IMG/VR virus record: IMGVR_UViG_3300047472_000449
Length of the DNA: 64,000 nt
Direction: 5' to 3' (one strand)
DNA from: a virus
Of the stretch, positions 479 to 50,240 are shown piece after piece. Every line of letters begins with the position of its first letter. Positions within the stretch are counted from its first letter, which is position 1. Made by a program: the position numbers and the translations under genes. The notes beneath the pieces were generated by a model that worked only from the letters and a program-made list of their open reading frames with translations, did no database searches and was not told where the DNA came from.

Positions 479-758
479 TTTTCGGGAACTGCCGCCCCGC
501 CCAAAACCCCAACCTCAGACTAATTATCATGGAACAGTTGCACTGGCTGTCGCTCGGAACGGTGGGATCATTTCGGATCACATTGGTGCCGGTTTACTCC
601 GCTGATAAGGCGGAAGGTAGCGCGATCAGAATGCCAGTGCGAACGGTATGCGTACCTTTCCGGGGAAGAACCGGATGCTTGGGCGGGTGGCGAGAGCGCC
701 GTCCGCCCCGATGATGTAAGCAAAAGCCCCCGCTCGGTAACCGACTGGGGGCTTTTGT
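466..758 (+). ncRNA. putative structured RNA, unit A
   Basis: long-range helix GCACTGGC(540-547)/GCCAGTGC(633-640), GGTA-TGCG-TACC hairpin, TCCGG-GGAAGAA-CCGGA hairpin; motifs shared with units B and C. Confidence 0.6.
721..758 (+). terminator. intrinsic terminator, unit A
   Basis: CAAAAGCCCCC...GGGGGCTTTTGTG; same architecture as 2418-2456. Confidence 0.85.
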
Positions 759-794
759 GATTTCCAACTCTTAGAAATGTGAAGGGATCTGCGA

Positions 795-1529
795 ATGATT
801 AAATGCGTGCGGGTAGCGTTGGTTTGCTTGGGTGCAGCCGTTATTTCAGGGTGTTATAGCGGTGGAATTAACACTGCATCAACCCAGGCAGGCGTTGATT
901 TCGAAAGACAGGAGGCGCAGCTCGCGAAGCAGCGTCAAGAGGCTGTGGCGGCTTATCGCTCAAAGTTCTCCTACTTGGCCTACAGCTACACCGTTCGACT
1001 GTACAAGACTGAGCTGAAGGCGGACGGCACGCGTGTGAAGAGCGGTCAGCCGATTAAGGAGTTTTCGGTGTCGGCCAATGGTGGTGAAATTGCGAGTTTC
1101 CATTTTGACGATTATAAGCCGACTGCTGACGACAAGCCGTTGGCCGATAATGAATTGCAGTACGTGGGTCAAAATAACCATGGCGCTCAGTATGATCTGA
1201 CGCCAGAGGCCCAGGTAAAACGCCCAGGCTCTATTGAGCTTAATGTTGATCCAAATTTGGCCTATGCCAGAGGGCGGGTGTATGTGTCGTTTAAAACTAA
1301 ACGTGTCGTAGGGGTGACCAAGGCAACGAATTTCCCCCAGCTTATGACTGGCAACTCTAATGTCACAGTGGGTAATGTCCTGCTTACTCTTCAGCCAAAA
1401 GACGGATCGGACTCACTTCGCGAAAGCAAAAAAGATTTTGTTGTCGATGCATTTTTTGTTGAGTTCGGCGTGACGGCGTTGGGTAAGCTCAAGCCTGAAG
1501 ATGTGCCGAGCGCCATTCCCAAGGGTTAA
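795..1529 (+). CDS. hypothetical lipoprotein
   Basis: 244 aa ORF; hydrophobic N-terminus ending in lipobox-like ISGC. Confidence 0.75.
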   Translation: MIKCVRVALVCLGAAVISGCYSGGINTASTQAGVDFERQEAQLAKQRQEAVAAYRSKFSYLAYSYTVRLYKTELKADGTRVKSGQPIKEFSVSANGGEIASFHFDDYKPTADDKPLADNELQYVGQNNHGAQYDLTPEAQVKRPGSIELNVDPNLAYARGRVYVSFKTKRVVGVTKATNFPQLMTGNSNVTVGNVLLTLQPKDGSDSLRESKKDFVVDAFFVEFGVTALGKLKPEDVPSAIPKG

Positions 1530-41403: not shown

Positions 41404-42570
41404 TCAATCTTGGCCAAACAAGTCTCGGGTGAAGGTCTTGTCGATCACATCGGCAATCTCGGCGGTAGCACGATTGGCCACGATCACGTCTGCGCGGCGT
41501 TTGAAGTCAGACAGATCCGTCAGTATCGTGGCATCGCAAAAGCTGTCCCCGCTGATTGTGGGCTCGTACACGATCACCTCCACTCCTTTGGCTTGCAGTT
41601 GCTTCATGACACCTTGGACGGAGGACGCACGGATGTTGTCCGAGCCCGATTTCATCACCAGACGATAAATCCCGACAACCTTGGGGTTGAGCTTCAGAAT
41701 GGATTCGGCAATAAAATCCATGCGTGTTGTGTTGGAGTCAACAATGGCGCGAATCAGGTTGTTCGGCACGCTGGAGTAGTTGGCCAACAATTGTTTGGTG
41801 TCTTTTGGCAGGCAGTAGCCGCCGTAGCCGAACGAGGGGTTGCAGTAATGATTGCCGATGCGCGGATCGAGCCCGACGCCCTCAATGATTGCCCGCGAGT
41901 CCAAGCCATGCATGGCCGCGTAAGTATCCAGCTCATTGAAGTAGGCGATACGCATGGCCAGGAACGTATTGGAGAACAACTTGATCGCTTCAGCTTCTGT
42001 CGGAGGGGTCAATAGCACCTCCACGTCAGCTTTCAGCGCCCCTTCCAACATTAGTTTGGCAAAGGCCTGCCCCAGCGCTGTCGTGTCGCCAACGACAATC
42101 CGCGAGGGATGGAGGTTGTCGTACAGGGCTCGGCCTTCGCGCAGAAACTCGGGGCTGAAGAGGATGTTCTGGCGCTGGAAGCGCTGGCGCATCCGCTCGG
42201 TAAAGCCGACCGGCACCGTGGATTTGATCACAACGATGGCATTGGGTTGAATGGCCATGACATCGCTAATGACTGACTCGACGGTATCGGTATTGAAGAA
42301 ATTGGTGTCAGGGTCGTAATCCGTGGGCGTGGCCACAATGACAAACTCTGCGCCGTCGTAAGCATCGTACTTGTCGAGCGTAGCCCGCAGCTTCAGATCT
42401 TTGGTGTCCAGATACTCATCCAATTCTGGGTCAACCACAACAGAGCGACGTTCATTGAGCGCCTGCACCCGCTCAGGGGCGATGTCGAGTGCAACCACCT
42501 GATTGTGCTGAGCCAGAAGAACCGCATTGGACAGACCCACATACCCGGTGCCGACAACTACAATCTTCAT
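41404..42570 (-). CDS. ugd: UDP-glucose 6-dehydrogenase
   Basis: [14 protein letters not shown] (Rossmann), [18 protein letters not shown], catalytic [10 protein letters not shown]; 388 aa. Confidence 0.96.
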
Positions 42571-42600
42571 GTGAACCCCAGCTGAGTTTTGAATTGTCTG

Positions 42601-42997
42601 AAAAGACATAAGGCCGATCCCTCGAAAGAAATCGGCCTTATGTTGCAAGAAGAACACAACAGCTTCCCGCACACACCGTTCTGCTGACTTGGAGGCGGCT
42701 ATTTCAAGGATGACTCCACCCGTCCTGGCGAACGTGCTTCAAAGTCTCGCCGCTATCCTAAACACCGCATCAGCAGATTGTGTTAGGCAACTACGTCCCT
42801 CTGTGGTTGCGGCCAGTCGGCGATGACTGCGACGCGTTTTACCTCATCGGGTGGCCGAAGCTCCCGTGGAACCACAGTGGCATAGATGCCACTGGCGTTT
42901 TTTGCTCGGCTTCGAGAGTGCCTAATTCTCTCCACCGAGGCTTTTTTGAGTTTCGCCCCGCGTCGGCTTGGCGCACTCTAAGGACTCAAGGTCAGTG
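42601..42997 (-). ncRNA. about 400-nt structured RNA or ugd leader
   Basis: promoter TTGACT(43026-43031)-17-TATACT(43003-43008); no credible ORF; many hairpins; ends in CATAAGGCCGAT/ATCGGCCTTATG-TCTTTT terminator 30 nt before the ugd ATG. Confidence 0.6.
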
Positions 42998-43064
42998 GCC
43001 TCAGTATAATAAGACCTCTTCAATCAGTCAACAGAAAAAACATCGTGTATGGGCCAGAAACCCT

Positions 43065-49851: not shown

Positions 49852-50240
49852 TGGTGGAGCCGGGGGGATTTGAACCCCCGTCCGTCAGTACTCCGCTGTC
49901 GGTACTACATGCGTAGCCAGATCTATTAAGTTAACCCGTGGCGACCCGATTGGCAGGGTGCGTTGGGCGAGTCGTGTAATGTTTAACTGCTTCGTCCACG
50001 ACGTACTAGGCAGCGATCCTGTTCTATCTGACAATCAGTTCGGGTTTACAGGCATCCCCTAGTGACTGCTGGCACCGAAGTGACCAGAAGTGCATGTCAG
50101 CTGCAATTAAGCAGCGAGAGCAGCACCGAAGGTTTCGTCATTGGCAACTATAAAAGTCGCAACAGTGGATTTACGAGTTCTGTTACCAACTCGGCATGCA
50201 CCTAAAGTTTCGTTACCAGCGTCGAATCCTAATCGGCCCC
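49852..50240 (-). ncRNA. ssrA: tmRNA (389 nt), tag ANDETFGAALAA
   Basis: 5' GGGGCCGATTAGGATTCGAC, 3' GGTTCAAATCCCCCCGGCTCCACCA with G3:U70 pair; tag codons 50145-50107. Confidence 0.97.

Follow-up and report, generated by a model that had tools for sequence, protein, structure and literature searches.

The locus considered here raises the question of what occupies the roughly 400 nucleotides (nt), free of conserved open reading frames (ORFs), that precede ugd, the gene for UDP-glucose 6-dehydrogenase, on the minus strand of IMG/VR virus record IMGVR_UViG_3300047472_000449, and whether this stretch serves ugd. The window analyzed, 64,000 nt in length, is part of a 1.136-Mb metagenome contig of the Joint Genome Institute. 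An earlier note on this DNA had proposed either a large stand-alone non-coding RNA (ncRNA) or a riboswitch or antiterminator leader gating the supply of UDP-glucuronate, and possibly a distant fourth member of an RNA family located at 264-2456 of the window. The key feature was missed in that interpretation. Judged from sequence and predicted pairing, the conserved core of the stretch is a complete, free-standing structural copy of the L1 stalk of 23S ribosomal RNA (rRNA).

Identity of the conserved core

In the ribosome, the L1 stalk binds protein uL1 and provides a platform for the elbow of the transfer RNA (tRNA) in the E site. The resemblance to this structure is evident at several levels. 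In a blastn search of a plasmid collection, 65 nt of the core matched unannotated sites in many unrelated bacteria, one of which proved to lie inside a 23S rRNA gene. Gap-free alignments were obtained with positions 2109-2180 of E. coli 23S rRNA (71% identity) and with Arthrobacter 23S rRNA (83%). The Rfam model of bacterial large-subunit (LSU) rRNA, LSU_rRNA_bacteria (RF02541), matches the minus strand from 42777 to 42680 with 53 bits against a cut-off of 50 bits (E 1.3e-15) and aligns without gaps over model positions 2122-2219, a span that corresponds exactly to helices 76, 77 and 78 (H76, H77 and H78). This match appeared only in a search with 141 nt and was lost to the speed filters in searches with 1 kb and 64 kb, so that the whole-window and 1-kb Rfam scans returned nothing for the region. 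Routine Rfam scans of long sequences miss rRNA mimics of the size of a single domain.

All elements of the stalk are present. H76 comprises 15 pairs, H77 is formed by GCGGC/GCCGC, and H78 consists of 3+8 pairs capped by a GCCA loop. T-loop 1 (AGGAUA) and T-loop 2 (UGAAA) are the same in the window, in its homologues L004 and L006, in two rRNAs and in the nine free copies of the stalk described below, and all six invariant T-loop residues as defined in PMC3664808 are intact. When the rRNA structure was imposed on three copies of the RNA and two rRNAs, 91% of the alignment cells paired and 19 of the 31 pairs were doubly changed, compared with 34-51% pairing in slid controls. With respect to E. 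coli, which has GGUGG/CCACC, H77 differs by three double compensatory changes, and the base of H78 reads GAC/GUC instead of GGC/GCC.

The likeness is confined to about 72-98 nt. Neither helices 75 and 79 nor the remainder of domain V is present, and the flanks gave no LSU match. No likeness to 23S or 5S rRNA was found in the rest of the 64-kb window, and the other conserved domain of the RNA has no rRNA match; the stretch is therefore neither an rRNA gene nor a piece used as rRNA. A piece of a fragmented rRNA from a cellular genome was also considered and ruled out, as no other rRNA-like piece occurs in the 64 kb and the flanks are not of rRNA type.

Conservation of the RNA

Near-identical copies of the RNA occur in other samples (L002, L003). 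In L004 and L005, an RNA of 97% identity precedes a 93%-identical ugd, and in L006 and L007, which represent another contig of 0.8-1.06 Mb, a diverged RNA precedes a 76%-identical ugd. Effectively, these copies represent two to three lineages of the ugd-proximal RNA. The ugd DNA of the window is 71.9% identical to that of L006 and only 49.9% identical at third codon positions, whereas in the RNA core (42880-42661) identity is about 88% and rises to 100% between 42820 and 42801 and to 93% between 42760 and 42701. The 5' hairpins and the terminator differ from L006 in sequence but have kept their pairing. A hand-built model of 88 pairs is 92.6% paired over four homologues and contains 16 doubly changed pairs, compared with 0-3 in slid controls; seven of them belong to the terminator and three to the hairpin preceding it. 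In addition, the stretch folds better than shuffled versions of itself (z = -3.15). Because the core is conserved beyond the synonymous sites of ugd and pairing is maintained through double changes, the stretch is, on comparative grounds, a real structured RNA under selection. Conservation and covariation thus support the part of the earlier proposal that saw in it a large, structured ncRNA equipped with a promoter and a terminator. In both diverged lineages the RNA lies directly before ugd, though the nearest neighbouring genes differ.

Outside these loci, searches with the RNA gave no match in a phage collection or an E. coli collection, and scans of IMG/VR with a 19-mer from the RNA and of genome contigs with a 20-mer were equally negative. 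An 18-mer was found at 29 loci among metagenome contigs, all of them chance matches to the 18-mer alone; this contig collection seems to lack the elements in question.

Transcription unit and architecture

The features of the locus are listed in Table 1. The promoter recognized in the earlier note is present and identical in L002-L005; the RNA of L006 has a different promoter, located about 170 nt further upstream. A promoter scan revealed no second promoter between 43003 and ugd, and none of ugd's own was detected. The terminator that the earlier note described at the 3' end as a 12-bp hairpin followed by UCUUUU is supported; the hairpin at 42643-42606 has 17 pairs and is followed by CUUUUC. 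It was missed by a simple terminator scanner because the program seeks short stems closing loops of 3-8 nt. The corresponding hairpin in L006 has a folding energy of -25.6 kcal/mol and differs from that of the window by 7-8 doubly changed pairs. As had been noted, the terminator ends 30 nt before the ATG of ugd.

Table 1. Features of the ugd-proximal RNA and of other genes in the 64-kb window.
Feature	Position	Strand	Remarks
Sigma-70-type promoter	43003-43031	minus	TTGACT (43031-43026), 17-nt spacer, TATACT (43008-43003); 10/12 consensus
Predicted transcript start	near 42996	minus	from promoter position
Predicted non-coding transcript, ~400 nt	42600-42996	minus	promoter, terminator, no conserved ORF, conservation and covariation
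Hairpin P1	42946-42989	minus	closed by UUGAGU/ACUCAA; sequence not conserved in L006
Hairpin P2	42905-42939	minus	CUCGG/CCGAG outside, GAGAG/CUCUC inside
Hairpin P3	42875-42894	minus	CAGUGGCA/UGCCACUG; AGCGU/ACGCU in L006
Three-way-junction domain	42801-42877	minus	closing helix CUGUGGUU/AACCACAG
L1-stalk domain (helices 76-78)	42680-42777	minus	Rfam LSU match
GGUGU	42673-42677	minus	predicted pairing with ACGCC 42898-42894
Pre-terminator hairpin	42645-42670	minus	GCGGGAAG/CUUCUUGC, conserved loop UGUUGUGUU
Intrinsic-terminator-like hairpin and CUUUUC	42600-42643	minus	hairpin 42643-42606, 17 pairs, -25.8 kcal/mol
ugd, UDP-glucose 6-dehydrogenase	41404-42570	minus	start ATG 42570, 388 amino acids, complete
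Transfer-messenger RNA (tmRNA) gene	49852-50240	minus	complete, 185 bits, tag ANDETFGAALAA
RNA units A, B and C	548-687, 1986-2116, 2291-2418	plus	small ORF before each

No conserved ORF led by a Shine-Dalgarno (SD) sequence is present in the stretch, in agreement with the earlier note: the short ORFs start with GTG or TTG, lack an SD sequence and are not kept in L006. On the opposite strand, an ORF of 45 amino acids with a TTG start (42689-42826, plus strand) is open in L006 as well as in the window. About 14 nucleotide differences between the two result in 11 amino acid differences. As nearly all nucleotide differences alter an amino acid, the constraint is not on a protein, and the frame is open in both lineages only because the RNA is conserved. 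Protein-coding readings of this antisense ORF and of a sense ORF of 50 amino acids were rejected.

From 5' to 3', the RNA is composed of P1, an A-rich linker, P2, P3, the junction domain, a linker, the L1 stalk, ACGGUGUG, a hairpin and the terminator. In L006, a different hairpin takes the place of P1 before the same A-rich linker. The outer helix of P2 is 100% paired and its inner helix contains two doubly changed pairs; for the P3 segment, RNAalifold also offers an alternative long-range pairing. The junction domain harbors a UUCG-capped hairpin with covariation, an invariant hairpin (CAGUC-AUCGCC-GACUG) and the unpaired, invariant GAGGUAAAAC, and it gave no rRNA or other Rfam match. According to the structure model, ACGGUGUG may pair with ACGCC at 42898-42894. 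The resulting helix GGUGU/ACGCC would enclose P3, the junction domain and the L1 stalk, and L006 has GGCGU and GCGCC at these places; since the changes are compatible but one-sided, they lend weak support to such a closing helix. The pre-terminator hairpin contains three doubly changed pairs and reads UCGGGA/UCCCGA in L006.

Several helices listed in the earlier note agree with this architecture, namely CTCGG/CCGAG with GAGAG/CTCTC, the CAGTGGCA hairpin, CTGTGGTT/AACCACAG, and TGCTGA/TCAGCA, which is the base of H76. CGGCCA/TGGCCG and CGATGA/TCATCG are not kept in L006, and CCTAACAC/GTGTTTAGG and GGCGA/TCGCC clash with the rRNA-type fold that is backed by covariation.

An AUG precedes the unpaired GAGGUAAAAC (42845-42853, minus strand), which results in AUG-AGG-UAA in the window and GUG-AGG-UAA in L006. 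This is a two-codon frame with a rare arginine codon and without an SD sequence, and the motif itself is SD-like. A coding reading of the frame was rejected due to the missing SD sequence.

Free L1 stalks in other viral contigs

Residues of the L1 stalk that are conserved universally served as the pattern for a scan of IMG/VR. True 23S genes, present in L046, probably in L053, and in the record of Paenibacillus phage Pd_22F, were excluded. At least seven large viral contigs (75-413 kb) carry free stalk heads, each with about 65-80 nt of likeness to rRNA. The contigs carrying free stalks measure 413 kb (L042), 410 kb (L043), 295 kb (L056), 245 kb (L047), 205 kb (L057), 194 kb (L055), 105 kb (L044 and L049), 75 kb (L054) and 43 kb (L045). 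The stretches around these stalks are ORF-free over 0.5-1.1 kb, and most of the stalks are found within or next to clusters of tRNA genes. The window RNA fits a provisional group of such RNAs, defined here by a stalk head outside any 23S gene and in an ORF-free stretch of at least 0.4 kb.

In an alignment of nine free copies that contains no rRNA, H77 is 100% paired with covariation in four of its five pairs, H78 is 94% paired with covariation in six of eight, and the T-loops and the base of H78 are invariant. The covariation score is 0.578, compared with at most 0.225 for slid partners. A U at position 2112 is common to the window, L006 and L054-L057. Like the window RNA, the copy in L054 has a promoter and a terminator of its own: it is enclosed by a sigma-70 promoter matching 11 of 12 consensus positions and a terminator, at a distance of about 460 nt from each other. 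The gene downstream is convergent, and the stalk of L054 is therefore part of a stand-alone RNA gene. The phage L1-stalk RNAs are not leaders of any recurrent gene.

Three further observations were made among these contigs. Two adjacent RNA modules lie inside tRNA arrays in L042 (3909-4563), L044 (337-785, minus strand) and L049-L052, all on contigs of 105-413 kb. The paired modules share the terminal stems GGAANCGUACAGCA ... UACGNUUCC followed by U residues, and the stems of different lineages differ by a compensatory change; only one of the modules contains the L1 stalk, and in L050 the second module is present without a stalk. At the contig end of L045 (1-94, minus strand), a stalk head that is 94% identical to E. 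coli 23S 2109-2180 is preceded by non-rRNA sequence, which may be an example from an enterobacterial phage or an assembly join at the contig end. The Pd_22F record (L048, 363-3270; MZ092003.1, 'complete phage genome') harbors a full-length 23S gene annotated as small hypothetical proteins, which suggests that MZ092003.1 contains host DNA or a misassembly.

Genomic setting

Most ORFs of the window could not be assigned to a family. The exceptions noticed encode R2K ATP-grasp domains, a nucleoside deoxyribosyltransferase-like protein, an AlkB-type oxygenase, TPR proteins and the tmRNA. The 1.136-Mb contig and its relative of 0.8-1.06 Mb from another sample likewise consist mostly of short ORFs without family, and both megabase elements also carry R2K ATP-grasp, AlkB-like, NinX-like and HU genes. 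The megabase element may be a giant phage, a plasmid or another replicon.

The ugd product contains all three UDPG_MGDP_dh domains and is about 70% identical to the Aeromonas and enterobacterial enzymes. Bacterial ugd genes with 71-73% identity are located in ordinary glycosyltransferase clusters, without a leader RNA in those checked. The 157-amino-acid protein encoded upstream of the RNA has no relatives among viral contigs, and a Ribosomal_L1 domain was not found among about 40 window ORFs scanned against Pfam. The tmRNA gene is situated 7 kb upstream of the ugd-proximal RNA in a window without tRNA genes. It is kept in the diverged relative L006 (about 600-1000, plus strand), where the L1-stalk RNA follows it at a distance of only 1.7 kb; thus RNA genes cluster in these elements too.

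Units A-C of the 264-2456 region are a real RNA family with three members. The covariance model built from them, R1, scores its own units with 113.6-134.5 bits, but over the whole window with filters switched off it reported nothing in 42600-43031 at E<=10, and no further copy of the units exists in the window. The idea that the ugd-proximal RNA is a fourth member of this family is consequently not supported. The sequence 'GGACGGGTGGAGTCAT', which had been taken for an echo of unit A, corresponds to the 3' strand of H78 and the linker to T-loop 2. The units show no rRNA likeness. An Rfam search restricted to 151 nt left the family without a match, and unit B yielded no meaningful hit.

Comparison of the ugd-proximal RNA with known families was also negative. 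None of the riboswitch families reached significance, the best being c-di-GMP-II with 18.7 bits against a cut-off of 53.5, over the L1 stalk. The T-box model gave no match at E<=10, and no specifier loop, T-box sequence or conserved antiterminator was found. RNase P models did not match the RNA, and GOLLD and ROOL were absent at Rfam gathering thresholds from the window, L042, L044, L045 and L047.

Possible function of the RNA

The reading preferred here, with confidence that falls somewhat short of even, is that of a stand-alone ncRNA serving as an rRNA decoy that binds host uL1 and perhaps tRNA, while ugd is expressed via terminator read-through. A transcript of about 400 nt would be produced from its own sigma-70 promoter and end at the hairpin and U-tract before ugd. 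It would fold like the rRNA stalk, capture free host uL1 and possibly dock tRNA. As a decoy or scaffold, it would thereby either disturb host translation and the feedback regulation of ribosomal proteins or turn them to its advantage. The promoterless ugd would depend on partial read-through of the terminator. Binding of uL1 or tRNA, action in trans and read-through are predictions, that of uL1 binding being derived from the intactness of the stalk. Said, Cole and Nomura (1988) reportedly showed that a 23S fragment with the L1 site, when expressed in E. coli, derepresses the L11 operon. A 55-nt fragment of 23S rRNA is sufficient for specific binding of uL1, which prefers rRNA over its mRNA mimic (PMC2175363, PMC10931766). 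A decoy or scaffold acting in trans is favoured because the phage relatives lead no recurrent gene and because no mutually exclusive pairing of sensor and terminator was found to be common to the window and L006, the two lineages that were folded up to the terminator loop.

Several observations weigh against this reading. In both lineages the RNA adjoins ugd, for which no promoter was detected, as a cis-regulatory leader would. The junction domain between 42877 and 42801 is even more invariant than the stalk, and a decoy does not explain it. The window, L004 and L006 harbor a U at the position equivalent to G2112 of 23S rRNA, and thus lack the purine platform with A2169. In the ribosome, G2112 stacks with A2169 on the tRNA elbow (PMC5309774), and the 2112:2169 platform is purine:purine in 578 of 591 rRNAs (PMC3664808). 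L006 additionally has a C where rRNAs keep a conserved G (position 2125). U2112 or the C2125 of L006 could weaken binding of tRNA or uL1. Finally, no blastn similarity was detected between the phage RNAs and the window RNA outside the stalk, so the analogy with the phages may not carry over.

The chief rival reading is an attenuator acting in cis, which we consider rather unlikely but to be taken seriously. The stalk mimic would bind uL1 or uncharged tRNA and thereby alter how often the terminator forms, so that ugd would follow ribosome assembly or translation. Promoter, mimic, terminator and gene stand in a row in both lineages, with the terminator between promoter and gene and no promoter after it, which is the layout of attenuators and riboswitches, and RNA and ugd have stayed together while their nearest neighbours differ. 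Attenuation of transcription by ribosomal proteins via rRNA mimics is moreover established (PMC1865079, PMC4538822). However, an antiterminator pairing common to the window and L006 was not found, and an independent, covarying hairpin separates the terminator from the L1 stalk. Furthermore, ugd is not a ribosomal gene, and phage stalks of the U2112 type precede convergent genes, tRNAs or unrelated ORFs. The tmRNA gene is also syntenic in both lineages; therefore, the adjacency of RNA and ugd may reflect inherited gene order. The earlier suggestion that a riboswitch or antiterminator gates ugd received no positive support, neither from a match to a riboswitch family nor from a shared alternative pairing.

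Improbable, in our estimate, is a role confined to the element's own RNA biology, either as a scaffold that docks the elbows of tRNA or tmRNA for processing, protection or delivery, or as a binding site for a protein of the element. The free stalks of giant phages inside tRNA arrays and the tmRNA gene at a distance of 7 kb, or 1.7 kb in L006, are in accordance with such a role, and the double T-loop is a universal dock for tRNA elbows, used by the L1 stalk, RNase P and T-box leaders (PMC3664808). The invariant second domain, which is otherwise unexplained, would also fit. However, the purine that stacks on the elbow is replaced by U in the window RNA and in L054-L057, the isolated stalk lacks the second contact used by T-box and RNase P RNAs, and no candidate partner protein was found among the approximately 40 ORFs scanned.

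A functionless relic of a 23S gene, captured by recombination and now drifting, is very unlikely: the best matches are ordinary bacterial 23S genes, but the copy spans exactly one structural domain, H77 carries three double compensatory changes with respect to E. coli, conservation between the lineages extends far beyond that of synonymous sites in ugd, and the flanking non-rRNA sequence is equally conserved and covarying. Hardly any weight can be given to a small-molecule riboswitch for a metabolite related to UDP-glucuronate, or to a distant member of the peptide-plus-RNA family at 264-2456, for although a long structured leader with a terminator precedes a metabolic gene and a few short words are shared with unit A, no riboswitch family is significant (18.7 against 53.5 bits for the best), the 73%-identical bacterial ugd genes that were checked have no such leader, and the model that scores units A-C with 114-135 bits does not report the RNA at E<=10.

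An RNA decoy or scaffold built on the L1 stalk, as preferred above, appears to be a hitherto undescribed means by which very large mobile elements engage the translation machinery of their hosts. Rfam contains no family for the window RNA, and full-text searches of the literature returned no description of a free-standing or phage-borne L1 stalk or of an L1-stalk mimic. To our knowledge, mimicry of rRNA is familiar almost only from short operator sites that ribosomal proteins recognize on their own mRNAs. In the present case, selection acts strongly on an entire rRNA domain embedded in a distinct RNA that a huge mobile element carries, and independent free copies of the stalk sit among the tRNA genes of giant phages. 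It is conceivable, and we propose it with reservation, that giant phages and megabase elements carry an unrecognised class of ncRNAs built around a free L1 stalk and hijacking host translation, of which the ugd-proximal RNA would be a member. If so, these RNAs might titrate uL1, resulting in derepression of the L11 operon or in ribosomes without L1, or they might handle deacylated tRNA or tmRNA outside the ribosome. Should they bind uL1 or tRNA, they would represent a novel, RNA-based means of taking over or sensing the host ribosome and provide a testable function for some of the large ORF-free regions of giant phages.

Comparison with known systems

With the L1 stalk of 23S rRNA, the window RNA shares the secondary structure position for position, including the T-loops, the GCCA-type loop of H78 and the conserved U-U pair in H76. 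It differs in that the copy stands alone in a mobile-element transcript of about 400 nt without helices 75 and 79, that H77 has been rewritten by compensatory changes, and that U replaces the elbow-stacking G2112.

The uL1 sites in the rplK-rplA (L11 operon) mRNAs of bacteria and archaea are likewise extraribosomal imitations of the uL1 site in 23S rRNA (PMC10931766, PMC2175363). Those sites are minimal, irregular stem-loops with an internal bulge that precede rplK/rplA and bind uL1 more weakly than rRNA does, whereas the window RNA comprises the entire stalk including H78 and both T-loops, precedes ugd and is unlinked to any ribosomal protein gene. The order of an rRNA-like site followed by a terminator is also found in the attenuators of the S10 leader with L4 in E. 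coli and of infC with L20 and rplJL with L10(L12)4 in B. subtilis (PMC1865079, PMC4538822). These attenuators control the operon of the binding protein itself via defined alternative structures, whereas the gene behind the window RNA is ugd and no conserved alternative structure was found in the two lineages.

In comparison with Stem I of T-box RNAs and the J11/12-J12/13 module of RNase P, the module in the window is a true homologue of rRNA with H78 and not the convergent T-box version, and the downstream ugd, unlike the genes behind T-boxes, is not an aminoacyl-tRNA or amino-acid gene. GOLLD and ROOL are large structured ncRNAs of phages and prophages that often lie beside tRNA genes. Neither is known to contain an rRNA domain. 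The free L1-stalk RNAs of giant phages share with them the setting beside tRNA genes.

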